DNA of 64,000 bases from a virus (IMGVR_UViG_3300028591_000078:64001-128000), one strand, 5' to 3'. Positions 10,454-48,701 are shown, counted from the stretch's first letter. Translations and numbers: made by a program. Notes: generated by a model from the letters alone, not told the origin.

Positions 10454-10586
10454 AAACTCTCCTCCTATCACAGAATATTACTAATAAGTTAACACAATGC
10501 CTTATCATAGGGGTTTAGAGTATTATGAAAAAGTAAATATTTTTGAATTATATATTATAAAAGTGCTAGGAAGGAGGATATTAATA

Positions 10587-12578: not shown

Positions 12579-12832
12579 AAATAAACGCGGCCTGACAAGC
12601 CGCGTTATTTTTTGTCTCCATATATAGCATTCGTAAAACTAAAAGATTTCAATTATATATTATAATAGTGAATAAGGATAACAGGCATCCTATTCAGTAC
12701 ATAGAAACGAATCTTGGTGATGCAGATTCTCTATGATACTACTTAACAAATCGCCAAATAATAAAAATATCTATTCTGGGATCAAAGCTGATCTAGTCAA
12801 TTAGCTCCCAGCGCATCACAGAAGGAAACACT

Positions 12833-15123: not shown

Positions 15124-17061
15124 ATGTTATTAAAAGATTATCCAGAAGGATATGATCTAACCTTAATGAATACAATGTTTAGGTTCGGAGAGAAAGATCC
15201 GATAACTGATAAGTGGACAGAAAGTTCAATAGATTTGATTATTAAAGATAATCATACAGGAGATAAGTTTGTAGAACATATAGAGAATCCTGATTATGAA
15301 TTCTATATATCTAAAGAAGAACTTCCTCATCATATGTTTTTCATAGATAAGGATGAGTGTGAGAAGATAGTAGTTCCATATAAGAATGTATTAAGGACTA
15401 TAGCGGATTTGACTGGAAACACAAATATGTTCTTCGAGAATATAAGGAATGGATTAAGTAAAGCTAATAAAATACTTCATCAACATCCGAGAGTATTCTT
15501 ATCTGATATGGATATAGAAGATCATTACATGTTTAGATTTGCTAGAGATTATACTAATAGTATTAATCCTATATCTAAAGCATTCTTCGATATAGAGGTT
15601 GACTCAATCAATATGATTGGAGATTTTCCAGAGTTTGGAGAGTGTCCAGTAAATGCAGTATCATTGATAGATGAGTCTAATAATATGGTATATGTATTCT
15701 TCTTAAGGAATGAAGCTAATCCTCTTATAGAGGAGTTTGAGAAGAGTATAGGACCAGAATTAATCAAAGAGTTAAAAGAGTTTCTGACTAATGCAGTAGG
15801 TGGTTGGAAACAAGCTCATAGATTTGGTATAGATACTCTTGATTTCAAATTCTTAGCATATGATGAAAAAGATGAGATCAAGTTAATAGCAGATCTGTTT
15901 AGAGCAATCAATATATTAAAGCCAGACTTTGTATTGGCATGGAATATGGGATTTGATATTCCATATATAATAGAGAGAATCAAGGCTTTAGGATATGATC
16001 CTAAAGATATAATGTGCCATCCAGATTTTCCGGTTAAAGAGGCATATTATGTGATAGATGAGAAAAATAAAAATGAGTTTGCAGAGAGAAACGACTTTGC
16101 AAGGATTAGTTCTTATTCAGTATTTTTAGATCAGCTTATACAGTTTGCATCTAGAAGAAAAGGACAGTCGGCAGTAAAGTCTTATTCTCTGGATGATATA
16201 GGAGATATGGTAGCAGGAGTTAGAAAGTTGAGCTATAAGCATATAACTACTAAGATTGCTGAGTTGCCATATAAAGATTATAAGACATTCATATTCTATA
16301 ATATCATGGATACTATAGTACAGAAGTGTATTGAAAAGAAGACTGGTGATATAGATTTCGTATTTAATAAAGCGATTACAAATAACACCAGATATTCTAA
16401 GATACATCGTCAGACTGTATATCTGGCTAATAGAGCCATTGCTCATTTCTATTCATTAGGATATGTAATGGGTAATAATATTAATGGTGGTAATAAGCCA
16501 GTTAAGTTTGCAGGAGCCTTTGTAGCAGATCCGAAGAAAGCATCTAATTATTCTAGGATAAAGGTTAATGGTATACCTATCAATGCTTATAATAATCTAA
16601 ATGACTTTGACTATAATAGACTTTATCCGAGTATAACTCAGGAGTTTAATATGGCTCCGAATACTCAATATGGTAAGGTTACGATAGTAGATCAGATGGA
16701 TCCGAATGAGAATAGATTTAATAGTGATGTATGGGAAAGACAGATTCAGTATATGGAAGATCTTCAGTCTAATGTATATATAGAATTCTGTCATAGATGG
16801 CTTGGTTTGGCAAGTTATAGTGAACTCATTGATGATATCTTAGAGTATTTTTATACTATAAGAATGAGTCAAAGGCCTATACAAGTATTTAATACTGAAG
16901 GAAAAATAAAACCATTCGAAAGTATACCAGTAAATGGTAAACTTAATCCATTCATTCATATGGATAATATTATAGTAAAGCCATTTGAGCATTATTATCC
17001 ATTAGATCTATCATTAAAGGAGAAAGTGATCAATGCAGTCAATAGTACCAATAGATTTTAG
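15124..17061 (+). CDS. Split family-B DNA polymerase, subunit with 3'-5' exonuclease and motif A
   Basis: ExoI FFDIEVD, ExoII AWNMGFDIPY, ExoIII YNIMD, motif A DFDYNRLYPSI. Motifs B and C are absent. Confidence 0.92.
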   Translation: MLLKDYPEGYDLTLMNTMFRFGEKDPITDKWTESSIDLIIKDNHTGDKFVEHIENPDYEFYISKEELPHHMFFIDKDECEKIVVPYKNVLRTIADLTGNTNMFFENIRNGLSKANKILHQHPRVFLSDMDIEDHYMFRFARDYTNSINPISKAFFDIEVDSINMIGDFPEFGECPVNAVSLIDESNNMVYVFFLRNEANPLIEEFEKSIGPELIKELKEFLTNAVGGWKQAHRFGIDTLDFKFLAYDEKDEIKLIADLFRAINILKPDFVLAWNMGFDIPYIIERIKALGYDPKDIMCHPDFPVKEAYYVIDEKNKNEFAERNDFARISSYSVFLDQLIQFASRRKGQSAVKSYSLDDIGDMVAGVRKLSYKHITTKIAELPYKDYKTFIFYNIMDTIVQKCIEKKTGDIDFVFNKAITNNTRYSKIHRQTVYLANRAIAHFYSLGYVMGNNINGGNKPVKFAGAFVADPKKASNYSRIKVNGIPINAYNNLNDFDYNRLYPSITQEFNMAPNTQYGKVTIVDQMDPNENRFNSDVWERQIQYMEDLQSNVYIEFCHRWLGLASYSELIDDILEYFYTIRMSQRPIQVFNTEGKIKPFESIPVNGKLNPFIHMDNIIVKPFEHYYPLDLSLKEKVINAVNSTNRF

Positions 17062-17686
17062 TATAGTAGAGAGATTGAAAGAAGTTTTCACTCTATTTAA
17101 AGTAATAGACTTCGCCATCATAGAAGGTGGCGGAGTTAATATATATGGTATGAATTATGAGCATAGTATCTTAAAATATACAGTCATAGATCCTATAGCA
17201 GGATTACCGCCACTAGTGATAATAGACTCTTCATCTTTAGCACCAGCTAAATATAAAGAACAGAAATACTTCTTAGTAAACTCTACGGTTATAGTAGCAG
17301 AGTCAGAATTATCTGAATTAGACTTTGTATTCTATTATCAGCATATCTATTCTGGGTACTCTGAAGCTAAGAGTTTATTTAAAGAGATTGCAATCTCCAA
17401 TATAACTTGCCATATAGAGCATATTCAGAAAGAAGCTAGTTTTGCTATGCAGATCTTATCTATGAGAGCTGCAGATGGCGTACAATACTATAAGTATAAT
17501 GGATATATGATGTCCTTATTTGTAGGAATTCTTCCTATAATATCTTCTGATGATGTACAGTTAGATATTATAGATAGACCAGATAATCCATGCTTTATAG
17601 GACGCTTTACAATAAAAAAGAAAAATGGTTTGGTATTAAAAGTATTTCTTAGATTTCTAAAGATAGGAATGAACCCTGTAGCGTAA
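17033..17686 (+). CDS. Putative PCNA/gp45-like sliding clamp (217 aa)
   Basis: Overlaps the 3' end of the polymerase gene. N- and C-terminal segments resemble PCNA by eye, and the size fits a two-domain clamp. Confidence 0.45.
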   Translation: MQSIVPIDFSIVERLKEVFTLFKVIDFAIIEGGGVNIYGMNYEHSILKYTVIDPIAGLPPLVIIDSSSLAPAKYKEQKYFLVNSTVIVAESELSELDFVFYYQHIYSGYSEAKSLFKEIAISNITCHIEHIQKEASFAMQILSMRAADGVQYYKYNGYMMSLFVGILPIISSDDVQLDIIDRPDNPCFIGRFTIKKKNGLVLKVFLRFLKIGMNPVA

Positions 17687-17704
17687 TGCTACAGGGCCAT
17701 TTTT
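17674..17704 (+). terminator. Intrinsic terminator bounding array 1
   Basis: CCCTGTAGC/GCTACAGGG stem plus T tract. Confidence 0.8.
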
Positions 17705-19493
17705 AATTCTTTACGTGCTTATGATAATTAATTATGACTAATTCATTATGAAATCCTGATACTTAATTTACGATAATTCATTATTGACGAATTGATAATT
17801 ATTTCAAATTAATTCATTAGATCATGTTGATATTTAAATCACATTAATTTATTAGTTGTGCGTGATATTTACGTATTGTTAATTCATTAGATTAGGTTGA
17901 TACTTAAATCACATTAATTCATTATGGCACCATGATATTTAAGAATTTTTGATTTAATATTGATATTTAATAATTCTTTACAGCTTCTTGATATTTAACA
18001 GCTTATGACTCAATAGTGTATATTGATATATATTCGCTGTTGGTTCTTTAGACAGAGGAGATACTTAAAGCATAGTAATTCATTAAATAGATTTGATAAT
18101 TAATACTTGCTAATTCATTAAAAGATAGCGATACTTATAATCAGGTAATTCATTAAAACTGCTTGATATTTAGTCCACAATAATTTATTTTATCACTAAT
18201 CTGATATGATACTTTGAACCGATTAACTCTTTAGTAGTCTTTGATAATTTAAAGTAATTGATTCATTTACGATTTTTGATGGTTATATATAAATGATTCT
18301 ATAGCTGCCTGATGATACTTAGAGTATGATAATTCATTACAAGTTACTGATAATTTACCTCCTAATAATTCTATACCTCCAACTGATATTTAAATGAATA
18401 TGGTTCATTAGCGCAAATTGATATTTACGGATCAGTAATTCTTTATATGGTAATGATACTTATGAGCATGTAATTCGATAATCGCTTTTGATATGTAATA
18501 ATGTCTGGCTCATTTAATGTTAATGATACCTACACCATTGTAATTCATTAATGATTATTGATATTTAAAACTTTTTGATTCATTAGTATTCATTGATATA
18601 ACCTTATATTCTTATAATTCTATACCTCCAGTTGATACTATAAATACTATGGCTCATTAAAGCAAATTGATACTTACAAATCGCTGATTCATTATCGCAC
18701 CCTGATACTTACAGATTAATAATTCATTATCGCACCCCTGATATTTATTTACCGGTGATTCATTACATTTATTTGATGCATACATGTCAATAATTCATTA
18801 ACATACCTTGATATTTATTTACTGGTGATTCATTAGCTCATATTGATACTTAAAATTCGGTAATTTATTAATTTTATTTGATACTTTCTTTTCTTCAATT
18901 CTTTAACGTAATATGATAATTGCCTTCCTGTGAATCATTATAATATAGTGATACTTATAAAAAGGTGATTCATATTCTTTACGGCGACTTGATAGTTATT
19001 TCTGCTTAACTCATTAACACTGGTTGATATTTACTTGCCTGTGATTCATTAGCTCCAAATGATACTTATGTTTATGTGGTTCATTACTATAATATGATAT
19101 TTTGAATTCACTAATTTATTTAAATTTGTTTGATTCATTATCTATTCCTGATACTTATATCAAACTGTTTCATTGTGCGTTCATGATATTTAGATTTGTT
19201 TGATTCATTTCATATCTATGATATTTTGTGGATTATGATTCAATAGCGTTTCATTGATGCTTATTTTTGTATAATTCATTAAAAGTAAATGATACTTACT
19301 ACCTTTTTGATTCATTACCTTTCGTTTGATGTTTAAGTTCCATTAACTCATTATGCGGCTGTGATATTTACTATTTTTTAATTCATTAAATCGTTTTGAT
19401 ACTTATACAAAATTGGATCTTTTTGTTACATTGATACATATAAAAGTATAATTCAATTTGTACTAATGATACTTAGTGATGCATGATTCATTA
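17704..19493 (-). ncRNA. TIGR-like dual-repeat guide-RNA array 1 (about 50 units of 35 nt)
   Basis: Plus strand reads TRATTCATTA-N8-TGATAYTTA-N8 repeated, with no ORF. An early promoter on the minus strand abuts the right end. Confidence 0.8.
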
Positions 19494-19527
19494 ATATAAT
19501 ATACAGCCCAAAAACCCTTTATTTACG
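19489..19527 (-). promoter_or_regulatory. Early-type promoter driving array 1
   Basis: Minus strand reads CGTAAATAAAGGGTTTTTGGGCTG-TATATTAT-ATTAA-TG, matching the early consensus including the upstream CGTAAA...TTT element. Confidence 0.7.
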
Positions 19528-19574
19528 AAAAGGTGAACATATTAATAATCTATAGAAAGGAGCTGATTATAACA

Positions 19575-34232: not shown

Positions 34233-36356
34233 GTGTATAAGATGGCTACTAAAGGATTATCAGATATGATGGTAATTCAAAAATTTAAAGATGAAATTCG
34301 ACCTGTACTAAGGTTGACATTTCCACATTTATCAGATTATGAGATAGATATGGCTGTGGACTATTCTTGTATTAAGAGAATGAAGAATGGCCAAGCATAT
34401 ATAGACAATAATTATACCAATGTAAAGGTTGATACTACAGTTCTACAGCTTACTGAGTATATTCTGAGTAGAGAACCTATCATAACTACTCAAGGTGTAC
34501 TATTTAAGAAGCATGGAACTGTACCTAATCCATTATATAGTCTTATACAGGAATTCATAGATAAACGAATTGCTTATAAGAAAGAGATGTTTAAGTATCC
34601 TAAAGGTAGTGAGATGTTTGCAAAGTATAACCTGCTACAGCTCTTAGCAAAGCTGGATGCAAATGCTACCTATGGAGCCATGGGTATGTATAGTTGCGTA
34701 CTGTATAATATCTATGTAGCATCAGCTATAACTGCACAAGGCAGATCTGGAATTTCTGCAGCAATATTGCTGATGGAAGGATTCCTAAGTAATAATGTAA
34801 AATTCGGTTCTTTGAATGAGATAGTAGTATTCATCAAGAATATAATCACCGAGCCTAGAAGATACAAAGACTCAGATATACTTGATGATGATATTACTAG
34901 AGAAGAATGTTTTTATAAGATCATGACTACATGTGGATTTGACTATATTCCTACAGAGAAAGATATGCAGATAGTATGGGATATGCTAGGTCAAGTTACA
35001 CAAGAAGATCTGAATAGATTATTCTATAAGAATAATCTGTATAACTTCATGGACAATAGTAGTATGCGTAAAGCAGTAATCTATATCCTTCAGAAGTTGG
35101 ATAGGCCTTTCATGGATCCTAATAAACCTCCGAAGTGTATATCTGTAGAACTTGAAGAGTTCTATCAGATACTATTTGAGTATGTATATTATGGATATCA
35201 GTATATAGATAGACTCGATCGTACAGAGAATATGATAAGAAATGTATCTATTATAACAGATACAGATTCTACTATCATATCTCTTGATGCATGGTATAGA
35301 TATACTTTAGCATTCACATATGATGTGCCGATGGAGATTAAGAAGATAGTAATTAATCCATTCATTCATATTGATGTAGATGAGTGGGGAGATCCTAAGA
35401 AACCTTATCAGCCATTCGAGCATATTGAACCTGAATACGATTATGACTTTTATACAGATGAAGTAATAGAACGAGAGAAGTTCATCAATCCTATGAAGAT
35501 ATGTCCTCAGGAAGGATTGAAGTATTCTATCATAAATATCATGTCTCATATAATAGGAAAGCTTTGTGTAGATTATATGAGAAGATATGCAATCAATTCT
35601 CATTCTGTAGATAAGAATAGACCTGATTGCCTATTGATATTGAAGAATGAATTCTACTTCGAACGAGTTCTGAATACAGATAATAAGAAGAATTATGCTG
35701 ATATACAGAGACTTCAGGAAGGTAATATAGTACCAGATGAGAATGCTCTTGATGTTAAGGGTCTTCCGATGACTAAATCTACTCTTCCTAAGAAGACTGT
35801 AAAAGCTCTGAAGAGAGTACTTAGAGAAAAGATACTTGCTCCAGAGGTTATAGATCAGATAGATGTATTGAAAGCTATCAAGATAGTAGAGAAGGATATC
35901 TATGAATCTCTGCTTAATGGTAGTAAGGAATACTACATGCCAGTTAAGATTAAGTCTACAGCAGGTTATGAGAATCCTATGAGAATATATGGATATAAAG
36001 CAGCATATGCTTATAACGCTCTTAGACTTGATGGTATGGAGGCAATAGATCTTGATTCTAGAAACAGTGTAGATATTATGAAAGTAGATATTACTACTAA
36101 GAATATCGAGCATCTAGCTCAAGATAATCCTATACTATATGAAAAGCTTACCAAACTCTTATCAGAACCTGAGTTTGATGGTGAACTTAGCATGATAGCA
36201 ATACCACTAAATGAACCAGTACCAGAATGGGCAAAGCAATTTATAGACTTTGCTACTATCATAAATAATAATGTTTCTAACTTCCCTCTTGAAAGTATAG
36301 GGCTGTTTAGAAACAATAAGTCTAATGTTAATGAGAGTAATATTCTGAAGATATAA
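34233..36356 (+). CDS. Split family-B DNA polymerase, subunit with motifs B and C
   Basis: Motif B KLDANATYG, ITAQGR, motif C ITDTDS, KKNYA, LDVKG. Confidence 0.92.
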   Translation: MYKMATKGLSDMMVIQKFKDEIRPVLRLTFPHLSDYEIDMAVDYSCIKRMKNGQAYIDNNYTNVKVDTTVLQLTEYILSREPIITTQGVLFKKHGTVPNPLYSLIQEFIDKRIAYKKEMFKYPKGSEMFAKYNLLQLLAKLDANATYGAMGMYSCVLYNIYVASAITAQGRSGISAAILLMEGFLSNNVKFGSLNEIVVFIKNIITEPRRYKDSDILDDDITREECFYKIMTTCGFDYIPTEKDMQIVWDMLGQVTQEDLNRLFYKNNLYNFMDNSSMRKAVIYILQKLDRPFMDPNKPPKCISVELEEFYQILFEYVYYGYQYIDRLDRTENMIRNVSIITDTDSTIISLDAWYRYTLAFTYDVPMEIKKIVINPFIHIDVDEWGDPKKPYQPFEHIEPEYDYDFYTDEVIEREKFINPMKICPQEGLKYSIINIMSHIIGKLCVDYMRRYAINSHSVDKNRPDCLLILKNEFYFERVLNTDNKKNYADIQRLQEGNIVPDENALDVKGLPMTKSTLPKKTVKALKRVLREKILAPEVIDQIDVLKAIKIVEKDIYESLLNGSKEYYMPVKIKSTAGYENPMRIYGYKAAYAYNALRLDGMEAIDLDSRNSVDIMKVDITTKNIEHLAQDNPILYEKLTKLLSEPEFDGELSMIAIPLNEPVPEWAKQFIDFATIINNNVSNFPLESIGLFRNNKSNVNESNILKI

Positions 36357-40601: not shown

Positions 40602-40732
40602 TGAAGTAGGGCTTCGGCCCTACTTCTTATTTTCGTAAAAGTCAATATTTTCAAGTGCATATTATTCCTGTGAGTTGAGGAACAATTCGGTTCCCAACCT
40701 AAAATATCAATCACTTTAAGGAGGGCCTTACT

Positions 40733-42298
40733 ATGGCTAAGAAGAACATTAACAATCCTGAGAACGAGAACAACAAGAAGAATATCAACAATGAGGAAAA
40801 TGAGCAGCTTCATTTCGACGAAACTGCTGCAGAGTCTGAGACTACAAAAGCGGAAGTAACCAAAGTCAGCAAAAAGGGGGACAAAGCTGACAAGCCTAAG
40901 AAGGTAAAGAAGATAAAGGCAACTAAGAAACTTGACGATACCAGCTTGACTGCTGCTATACAGAAAAAGGTTGAAGAGGAGGTCAACCCTGAGGATATCA
41001 AGGGCAATCCGCTCTTCAATGTTCCCAAGAAGGTAACTGACTGGGAGCAGGTAGTGAAGGATATCAATATCACCACTGATATCGAAATGAGAGCTCTGAT
41101 AAAGCAGTTCTATAATGTATATCAGAGCAGACGTATTCAGGTCCAGAACCAGAACAGATCAATCATGCAGGGCTTCAGTAACAATGAAGCTGCTGACATA
41201 ATTGATGATAATGATCTGGAAGAAATGACAGATCTTATCAAGTTCCCTGCCCTTGCTGTGCTGGCGGACATGCAGCTGGAGCAGGAAAAGGCACTGAAGG
41301 GTATTATCGAAAGATATGTTCTGTCAAAGCCTATGGGACAGTACCTCACTTCTATAGTAGGTGTAGGTCCGCTGCTTGCAGGATCTCTCATGGGATATCT
41401 CAAGCCTACACTCTACTCCGGCGAATGGATCTCCTATGCAGGTCTCAATAACAATAATGATCCGTGGATTAAGGGTGATACAGTAAGTTACCTCTTCGAC
41501 AAATATAAGGTTCCGAAGATAGTAACCCCTGAGATCATAGGAGCAATATCTGCAGAGACAGGAAGATCTGTAAACAGAATAATCGAAGGTGCAAGCACCC
41601 TTGATGCTGAAGGAAACTCTGTGATCCTTAAAAAAGATCTTGAGAGTTATCTCAAGAAGCCTAACCATAACAGAGAGCTCAAGAAGGTTATCTGGAAGCT
41701 CGGCGAGTCTTTGAATAAGATCAGAAACAAGCCCAATTCTCTGTATGGTAAACTCCTTGCTGAAAGACAGGCTGAAGAAAATACTAACAATGAAAAGCAT
41801 TACTACATCCAGGAGGCAATTATATCTCTTGGATGGAGACCGGCTGATAAGCCTAAGGGATGGGTTTACAAGAAGAATCCTAACCTCACCCTTGCCGAAG
41901 AAGAAGAGCTTCTTAAGCAGGTTCAGTATGATATTGATAACAAGATATTTACTGATTTCAACAAGATCTCTCCTTCGGCAGAGACATTCGAGCTCTATTA
42001 CAATGGATACCTCAATAAGGCTCACATCCTTAACAGAGCAAAAAGGTGGGCTGCAAAGATCTTCCTGAGCCATGTGCATGATGCCATGTACATCGATGAA
42101 AAGGGTGAGCTTCCGCCTGTTCCTTATGTGTTCGCACATGGTGGACACTGCAGATACATCGAACCTGAAGTTCCGTTCAGCAAGATCTGGAGCTGGGTTG
42201 ACGATGAAGAGCTCAAGAGAAGAGCTCTTGAAGCATCTGCAAATACTACAGATAAGAGAGTCGCTAAGAGTGACAATCCTACAACTTGCTGGATGTAA
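40733..42298 (+). CDS. tasA: IS110/Nop-domain RNA-guided protein without a nuclease domain (TasA-like)
   Basis: Coiled coil MRALIKQFY..YQSRRIQVQNQ, LTSIVGVGPLLAG, WISYAGL, NRELK, SLYGKLL, HILNRAKRWAAKIFL and PYVFAHGGH. No N-terminal DEDD RuvC and no SG serine loop. Own early promoter and terminator. Confidence 0.7.
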   Translation: MAKKNINNPENENNKKNINNEENEQLHFDETAAESETTKAEVTKVSKKGDKADKPKKVKKIKATKKLDDTSLTAAIQKKVEEEVNPEDIKGNPLFNVPKKVTDWEQVVKDINITTDIEMRALIKQFYNVYQSRRIQVQNQNRSIMQGFSNNEAADIIDDNDLEEMTDLIKFPALAVLADMQLEQEKALKGIIERYVLSKPMGQYLTSIVGVGPLLAGSLMGYLKPTLYSGEWISYAGLNNNNDPWIKGDTVSYLFDKYKVPKIVTPEIIGAISAETGRSVNRIIEGASTLDAEGNSVILKKDLESYLKKPNHNRELKKVIWKLGESLNKIRNKPNSLYGKLLAERQAEENTNNEKHYYIQEAIISLGWRPADKPKGWVYKKNPNLTLAEEEELLKQVQYDIDNKIFTDFNKISPSAETFELYYNGYLNKAHILNRAKRWAAKIFLSHVHDAMYIDEKGELPPVPYVFAHGGHCRYIEPEVPFSKIWSWVDDEELKRRALEASANTTDKRVAKSDNPTTCWM

Positions 42299-42390
42299 TT
42301 CGGTAAGGAGATAATTTAAAAGGGGAGATTCGTCTCCCCTTTATTTTTCATCACTTTAGGAACACTTCAGTAAAAAGGAAGTGTTTTAAA

Positions 42391-48429: not shown

Positions 48430-48701
48430 AAAGAAAAGAAGTGCACCAGGCACTTCTTTCTTTTTAGGCAGAATGGCAGAGAAATATATATAATGAAGGA
48501 AACGCACAATACTATGAACGTACTATATGAAACAATAAGAGGATAACTAAATGAAATTTAAAATGCGAGCACTTAACGCATGGGATTTAGCCATCCTACC
48601 TTTTATTAATAAGTTTGAATCCAATCTAGCAAAAGTAAAAGATTTCAATTATATATTATAATAATGAGTAAGAAAAGAATGATAGTAAAGGAGTTGATAT
48701 T

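Follow-up and report, generated by a model that had tools for sequence, protein, structure and literature searches.

Which guides does an RNA-binding phage protein use when it carries no nuclease domain and its gene has no guide array at its side? This question is raised by an open reading frame (ORF) of a virus, found in the stretch of 64,000 nucleotides (nt) IMGVR_UViG_3300028591_000078:64001-128000, in the following called the window, which covers positions 64001-128000 of a 238,365-bp IMG/VR virus record with a CheckV completeness estimate of 97%. The record is that of a jumbo phage from the ruminant gut, and the stretch was found in sheep, bovine and goat gut metagenomes from many studies; the GenBank phage collection contained neither a DNA match nor a protein match. 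A first-pass annotation had described the ORF as a nuclease-free, stand-alone TasA-like protein that uses distant arrays in trans. Our fold comparisons, profile searches and genome-wide searches agree with this core reading. We consider it likely that the locus belongs to a trans-acting dual-repeat TIGR-TasA system, in which the arrays are unlinked from the tas gene and the protein binds DNA without cutting it. Coordinates of all features are collected in Table 1.

An AlphaFold2 model was built from 13 homologues, with a mean predicted local distance difference test score (pLDDT) of 69.7 and core values of 80-92. In structural alignments of this model, residues 113-485 matched the Nop domain of TasH with a Z score of 15.0 (228 residues, root-mean-square deviation (rmsd) 3.3) and that of TasR with a Z score of 14.2 (192 residues, rmsd 2.4, 23% identity), whereas the IS110-type recombinases IS621 and ISCro4 reached a Z of only about 9. 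The coiled-coil hairpin (residues ~116-198) is present and superposes on the hairpins of TasH and TasR. A comparison by HHpred or Foldseek had been proposed as a check; the top ten Foldseek matches were the same Tas entries. Profile searches with the family gave the same ranking, with E values of 1e-20 for TasR (9mty), 2.4e-7 for TasH and 3e-3 for IS621. The NCBIfam model TIGR_Tas (NF052498, an equivalog named for RNA-guided endonucleases) matched residues 121-451 at E 3.5e-21 and covered profile positions 3-213 of 215, the match being split by two insertions. As the protein is far closer to Tas proteins than to IS110 recombinases, the earlier description as a domesticated IS110 protein is not indicated. 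The motifs on which that description had drawn are nevertheless all found, namely GVGPLLAG (210-217), SYAGL (234-238), NRELK (313-317), HILNRAKR (431-438), KIFL (442-445), PY (464-465) and GH (471-472). An exhaustive search yielded 1,392 related cluster representatives; homologues with more than 40% identity are a handful, every one of them from large phage contigs.

No nuclease domain was found. Structural alignments with TasH and TasR start only after the HNH and RuvC parts of these chains, and IS621 can be aligned only from its residue ~125 onward. The DEDD RuvC-like catalytic domain of IS110 transposases is absent, its place being taken by 112 N-terminal residues that are disordered and match no family. 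These comprise the K/E/N-rich tail of about 110 residues seen by the first-pass annotation, with 23 lysines, 14 glutamates and 14 asparagines; residues 1-70 have pLDDT values below 50, and residues 71-112 form short helices only. Pfam assigned no family to the protein as a whole, Pfam and the ESM Atlas were likewise uninformative for the insertions and the tail, and the insertions contain no acidic or histidine residue that is invariant. The nuclease-free claim is hence borne out by Pfam, model and structural alignment for both HNH and RuvC. Because the alignments begin after the nuclease domains, the disordered tail has no family match and the insertions lack invariant acidic or histidine residues, we assign the modelled product to TasA, the nuclease-free Tas class. 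Solo-Nop TasA proteins are viewed in the literature as the ancestral form.

The C-terminal loop points to the kind of guide RNA that the protein may handle. SpTasH matures its own pre-tigRNA by means of Y289 and H296 in this loop (PMC13421893). In an alignment of TasA with TasH, whose gene we retrieved from the Salicola phage record, Y289 and H296 fall on Y465 and H472, with an identical spacing of seven residues, and both positions are near-invariant across the family. Y465 and H472 are thus a candidate tigRNA-processing dyad, as judged from this alignment. The PY...GH motif, which had been labelled as RNA-binding, is present as described, but its alignment with the SpTasH dyad makes it more than an RNA-binding element. 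Such a Y/H loop marks the dual-repeat clade and is missing from Tas proteins that bind stem-loops (Xu et al. 2026, 10.64898/2026.09.09.750476). RNA-binding and processing residues are conserved in homologues down to 25-30% identity.

Both insertions predicted earlier, after YAGL and after AERQAEE, were confirmed against SpTasH. The first adds ~59 residues after YAGL...DPW, is present in 12 of the 12 closest homologues and was modelled at a pLDDT of about 85. Folded alone, it gave EF-hand-pair-like matches that were weak (Foldseek E about 0.2, best Z 4.8), and we therefore assign no domain to it. The second adds ~55 residues and is present in the eight closest homologues; in four others (P0010, P0012, P0013 and P0014) it is ~30-40 residues shorter.

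Candidate guides for this protein lie far from its gene. A genome-wide search of the 238-kb record found one tas gene, and no more than two sites with tigRNA-like units. Array 1 ends 21.2 kb before tas and array 2 starts 20.6 kb after it, in line with the earlier statement that no array is adjacent and that both lie about 21 kb away. Each unit has 35 nt, in the order repeat (10 nt), spacer (8 nt), repeat (9 nt) and spacer (8 nt). Chained parsing recovered 45 well-formed units in array 1 and 68 in array 2, 113 in all, in which the repeats are strongly conserved and the spacers carry near-zero information. From the repeat phase we obtain ~51 and ~70 units, about 121 genome-wide, with ~83 of them inside the window; the earlier count of more than 80 guides agrees with this. 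A few diverged local duplications occur in the arrays. The adjoining ORFs encode a DNA polymerase part, a virion structural protein and a primase, and none of them is a Tas protein.

In a few units of array 2 (63144-63178 and 63284-63318), one spacer is almost the complement of the other (TTCAAACC and GGTTTCAA, for example); judged from their sequence, such units may fold into a hairpin or have a short direct repeat as target. We also came across a 14-unit array of 35-nt units with nearly the same repeats (TGATATTTA / TGATTTATTA as fetched) on a 17-kb IMG/VR phage fragment (L086:6296-6808). It adjoins an RNA polymerase beta'-like fragment, and no Tas gene lies within the 12.9 kb examined.

Gene and arrays have a promoter motif in common. 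It consists of TTTTGTAAAAGT, 15 nt, YATATTAT and then a GTGAGTT-like element, and is found upstream of tas in four related phages. The promoter that the first-pass annotation had placed at 40658 is the start of its second, -10-like box. Four arrays were examined, two here and two in a relative, and each has the same motif at its right end, on the minus strand. Its recurrence supports a co-regulation of tas and arrays. On either side, tas is bounded by a strong intrinsic terminator, which fits the description as a stand-alone unit, and it is flanked by the terminase gene and a helicase gene in an order kept in four phages. A scan for the sigma-70 consensus found no promoter in the 106-nt gap before tas and no promoter-like excess in array 1.

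From these signals, we predict with good confidence that the arrays are transcribed on the minus strand, opposite to tas. Read in this direction, each array closes with a 3'-truncated UAAUGAA... repeat followed by a hairpin, which is the published description of a TIGR array end. From this it follows that UAAUGAAUYA would be the edge repeat and UAARUAUCA the loop repeat. The hairpin of array 2 carries a U-run on the minus strand; a simple terminator consensus scan did not flag it, although its fold is stable. In relatives with arrays beside tas, AAUGAAYYA and AAAUAUCA are found on the tas strand, which corresponds to the minus strand here. Plus-strand transcription, at first favoured on the UG...UUA pairing and an R/U polymorphism, was dropped for the minus-strand motif at four arrays, the hairpins at the opposite ends and the tas-adjacent arrays of the relatives. 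An RNA run (X24, contigs only) gave short pieces with 90-95% identity on the flanking genes and none on array 1, and is uninformative on expression.

Copies of this promoter class (TTGTAAAAGT, 15 nt, TATATTAT, ~4 nt, RTGARTW) are not confined to tas and the arrays; the 238-kb genome contains about ten close ones. Those in the window (10525-10558, 12631-12663, 40633-40665 and 48627-48659) are all on the plus strand, and the copies mostly precede small ORFs without known family. A second element is also conserved: GGTCAACATATCTATAATA occurs on the plus strand directly right of array 2 both here (genome 129385-129420, window-equivalent ~65385-65420) and in the relative (L091 ~18505-18535). It is probably the promoter of the downstream gene and diverges from the array 2 promoter.

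The split layout recurs in a relative, P0003, whose TasA is 42% identical and whose ~240-kb contig has the same terminase-tas-helicase order. A stepwise walk along this record showed the region around tas to be free of arrays over 10 kb upstream and 20 kb downstream. One array of 1.4 kb, at L091 ~17070-18450, is found 24.7 kb downstream of tas behind the primase orthologue (52% identity), and another of 2 kb lies between the polymerase-associated ORF and the structural-protein orthologue (L094:7983-10001). Both positions are syntenic with those of the arrays described here, and the arrays comprise about 35 and about 47 units with the same repeat cores. Co-occurrence of gene and arrays across related jumbo phages had been named as a check; in this relative, tas and both arrays are kept together. 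Two further relatives (P0004 and P0006) have the same gene order and no array within 10 kb of tas. In most of the distant IMG/VR relatives, by contrast, a 36-nt array stands directly beside tas.

While the positions are kept, the content of the arrays is not. No spacer pairs are common to this phage and P0003 beyond chance. Among close strains, we compared array 1 (window 17700-19500) with contigs of runs X2, X3 and X4. A 36-kb X4 contig is 97-98% identical in the flanks (56 differences in 1,749 nt on one side and 39 in 2,013 nt on the other), and its array differs by a duplication of 35 nt, a deletion of 74 nt and the replacement of several blocks of units with other sequence. Such differences between contigs may include artefacts of repeat assembly; two studies share the same variants, the 74-nt deletion being also present in run X2, from a different study. 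As whole units differ between flanks of such high identity, the arrays change much faster than their surroundings.

These observations are consistent with the following mechanism. Minus-strand transcription of each array would start at the array's own copy of the tas-type promoter motif and stop at its hairpin terminator. TasA would be made separately and would bind the long precursors in trans via its Nop domain. Cleavage within the edge repeat UAAUGAAUYA is probably carried out by TasA itself, through Y465 and H472, and the product would be a 35-nt tigRNA consisting of half an edge repeat, the 8-nt spacer A, the loop repeat UAARUAUCA, the 8-nt spacer B and another half edge repeat. In analogy to the solved Tas complexes, a TasA dimer might then take up one tigRNA, whose spacer A would pair with one strand and spacer B with the other strand of a 16-18-bp site. 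A homodimer prediction for residues 105-490 scored 0.15 against a mark of 0.42, which speaks neither for nor against a dimer. Because TasA has no nuclease, we assume that it would act by occupancy, blocking transcription or replication at the bound site. For other TasA proteins, RNA-guided DNA binding and reversible repression of transcription have been described (Xu et al. 2026, 10.64898/2026.09.09.750476).

Alternatively, TasA might be the targeting module only and recruit a second effector through its insertions or tail, for example the adjacent superfamily 2 (SF2) helicase or a nuclease encoded elsewhere, so that bound DNA would be degraded or remodelled. The two conserved insertions and the long tail have no assigned role, and in each of the four related phages the gene after tas encodes a ResIII/DEAD helicase. 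However, a strong terminator separates the two genes, and the helicase resembles a core replication/recombination gene (PHROG 16). Moreover, the whole region is syntenic among these phages, and the adjacency of tas and helicase is therefore no specific evidence. Insertions at the same Nop positions in other Tas proteins touch the tigRNA and not protein partners. We hence regard recruitment as unlikely.

Several points weigh against a TIGR-TasA system acting in trans. The NF052498 score of 76.2 bits lies below the curated cut-off of 100. Large insertions and a long tail are at odds with the dual-repeat Tas proteins, which have been described as compact, insertions being typical of stem-loop binders (Xu et al. 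2026, 10.64898/2026.09.09.750476); in this, the present clade is unusual. The 8-nt spacers are as short as the published range of 8-12 nt allows. Expression of arrays and tas, as well as the transcribed strand, is predicted from sequence. The boxes diverge from the canonical UG/CCA: on the minus strand the loop repeat reads UA...UCA and the edge repeat UA...UYA, with the outermost bases forming a pair and A-U or A-C as the second one. Pairing of box D with box C favours the plus strand (UG...UUA, G-U wobble) over the minus strand (UA...UCA, A-C mismatch), and because this pairing alone would favour plus, our choice of strand is based on homology and on how promoters and terminators are arranged. 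According to the published TIGR description, box divergence is allowed where it covaries between both repeats. Finally, the 113 guides gave no perfect match to the phage's own genome, searched in both tandem-spacer geometries with gaps of 0-2 and up to two mismatches.

As no guide perfectly matches the phage itself, host genes or competing mobile elements of the ruminant gut are the most likely targets. Regulation of the phage's own genes, as a temporal switch or for replication control, would agree with the stable, syntenic core-genome position of tas and with a promoter class common to other phage genes. Self-matches with one mismatch were also slightly above the shuffled-pair controls in one geometry (11 vs 5.1), an excess that is not significant after multiple testing. 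Yet fixed sites in the own genome fit poorly with a complete turnover of spacers between related phages and with whole-unit differences between strains with 97-98% identical flanks, and not one guide among the 113 has a perfect self-target. Self-regulation therefore appears somewhat less probable still than recruitment. In ~117 kb of related-phage DNA, we found three one-mismatch matches where about three were expected, i.e., no enrichment.

Least probable of all, and by a wide margin improbable, is a decayed IS110-type transposase or inactive relic, with arrays that are orphan or served by another protein: the PHROGs label 'transposase' (E 1.5e-13, residues 113-479), Pfam Transposase_20 in two distant homologues and the distance between tas and arrays would speak for it, but the RuvC-like DEDD domain is missing, sequence and structure are much closer to Tas than to IS621, the RNA-binding and processing residues have been kept in remote homologues, the gene is the sole Tas-like one in its genome and is retained together with both arrays in the 42%-identical relative, and an Rfam scan of the window, bridge RNA included, gave no family match.

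Within the favoured reading of a trans-acting TIGR-TasA system, we may speculate further on the number of guides. About 120 of them in two fast-evolving cassettes could form a multiplexed silencing library, with one TasA, co-regulated through the common promoter, acting in trans during infection and shutting down many loci of the host or of rival phages simultaneously; the turnover of units would then reflect active gain or diversification of spacers. This is a possibility that we propose tentatively, and we think it more doubtful than not.

TIGR-Tas systems were described only in 2025. The present one is similar to that of FpTasA from Flavonifractor plautii (Faure et al. 2025, PMC12045711), which is also a phage-borne solo Nop effector without nuclease, and FpTasA-type systems have two alternating short repeats with paired short spacers as well. 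In dual-repeat TIGR-TasA systems (PMC12045711), however, arrays lie beside tas, usually comprise 5-15 units of 36 nt with 9-nt spacers and have UG...CCA boxes. Here, the arrays are 20-21 kb from tas, on the other strand according to the favoured orientation and with their own predicted promoters, comprise 51 and 70 units of 35 nt with 8-nt spacers and have UA...UCA/UYA boxes. Unlike the FpTasA type, the protein has 521 residues, a disordered tail of 112 residues and two insertions of ~55-60 residues.

SpTasH of Salicola phage CGphi29 (PDB 9w03, 9w04 and 9vzx; PMC13421893) is the best structural match with a Z score of 15.0, is likewise of the dual-repeat type and aligns in its dyad; it differs in that it has an N-terminal HNH nuclease and cuts DNA, is compact with 309 residues and has its array close to the gene. 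MbTasA, BlTasA and PlTasA (Xu et al. 2026, 10.64898/2026.09.09.750476; Guan et al. 2026, 10.64898/2026.08.11.744272) are nuclease-free, and this group features RNA-guided DNA binding, reversible repression, disordered extended N-termini and Nop insertions. In contrast to the present protein, they use stem-loop tigRNAs and have no Y/H loop, whereas here dual repeats and the dyad are kept and large insertions occur nonetheless. The bridge-RNA recombinases of the IS110 family (IS621, PDB 8wt6-8wt9) have a homologous coiled-coil and C-terminal RNA-binding domain, but unlike IS621 the present locus lacks a DEDD RuvC domain, a transposon context and a bridge RNA, and its guides derive from arrays.

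Two other features of the window may be mentioned. The family-B DNA polymerase appears to be split between genes 17 kb apart, 15124-17061 and 34233-36356, into an exonuclease-like and a palm/'divDNApol' part, and the same split is found in the relatives. An ORF of 169 residues (61028-61537) matches the macrodomain of the DarG antitoxin, an ADP-ribosyl glycohydrolase (NCBIfam E 1.8e-9; PHROG 335 'phosphatase'), and from this match it may serve in counter-defence against DNA ADP-ribosylation of the DarT type.

Table 1. Features of the tas gene and the two guide arrays, in window coordinates. pLDDT, predicted local distance difference test; CTD, C-terminal domain; RBS, ribosome-binding site.
Feature	Position	Strand	Remarks
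Hairpin at the array 1 3' end on the minus strand	17674..17696	.	Also terminator of the upstream plus-strand ORF; -20.1 kcal/mol, z -6.5, weak U tail
TIGR array 1	17704..19493	- (favoured)	~51 units of 35 nt, of which 45 are well formed; the degenerate ones have small indels
Weaker tas-type promoter motif, pointing into array 1	19496..19531	-	Reads TTTTCGTAAATAA, 15 nt, TATATTAT; same place in relative
Intrinsic terminator closing the terminase-large-subunit gene, upstream edge of the tas unit	40603..40626	+	10-bp stem with 6 GC pairs, then T-run
tas promoter motif: TCGTAAAAGT, 15 nt, CATATTAT, then GTGAGTT initiator-like element	40633..40665	+	Same place in four phages
tasA coding sequence, 521 aa	40733..42298	+	RBS AAGGAGG; NCBIfam TIGR_Tas match; TasH/TasR structural match
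K/E/N-rich disordered N-terminal tail, residues 1-112	40733..41068	+	pLDDT, Pfam; length varies among homologues
Insertion 1, residues ~239-312, wedge position	41447..41668	+	Small module of four helices and a beta-hairpin
Insertion 2, residues ~355-428, helical, between CTD helices	41795..42016	+	Alignment with homologues
C-terminal loop with Y465 and H472, candidate tigRNA-processing dyad	42125..42148	+	Alignment with SpTasH
Intrinsic terminator 3' of tas	42319..42342	+	10-bp stem, then T-run
Bidirectional terminator-like hairpin (A-run, stem, T-run) at the array 2 3' end on the minus strand	62840..62874	.	-17.1 kcal/mol, z -5.2 on minus; -17.0 kcal/mol, z -6.3 on plus
TIGR array 2, first ~32 of ~70 units in the window	62864..64000	- (favoured)	Continues to window-equivalent 65325
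Array 2 promoter motif	65337..65369 (window-equivalent, past the window end)	-	Close copy of the tas motif, immediately right of the array

In published TIGR-Tas surveys, 5 kb or up to 10 kb around tas were extracted, and arrays were found at about a third of tas loci; jumbo phages are not mentioned in the TIGR literature that we searched. Survey windows of 5-10 kb would score the present locus as array-less. The conserved layout, with gene and arrays split by 20-25 kb, means that distant arrays may serve some of the 'array-less' tas genes in trans, and searches for arrays should thus span whole genomes. The published generalisation that dual-repeat Tas proteins are compact also does not hold for the present TasA with its large Nop insertions. 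With a near-complete genome, ~120 guides and strains that differ by whole units, this phage provides material for studies of spacer turnover and, once the host is identified, of targets.

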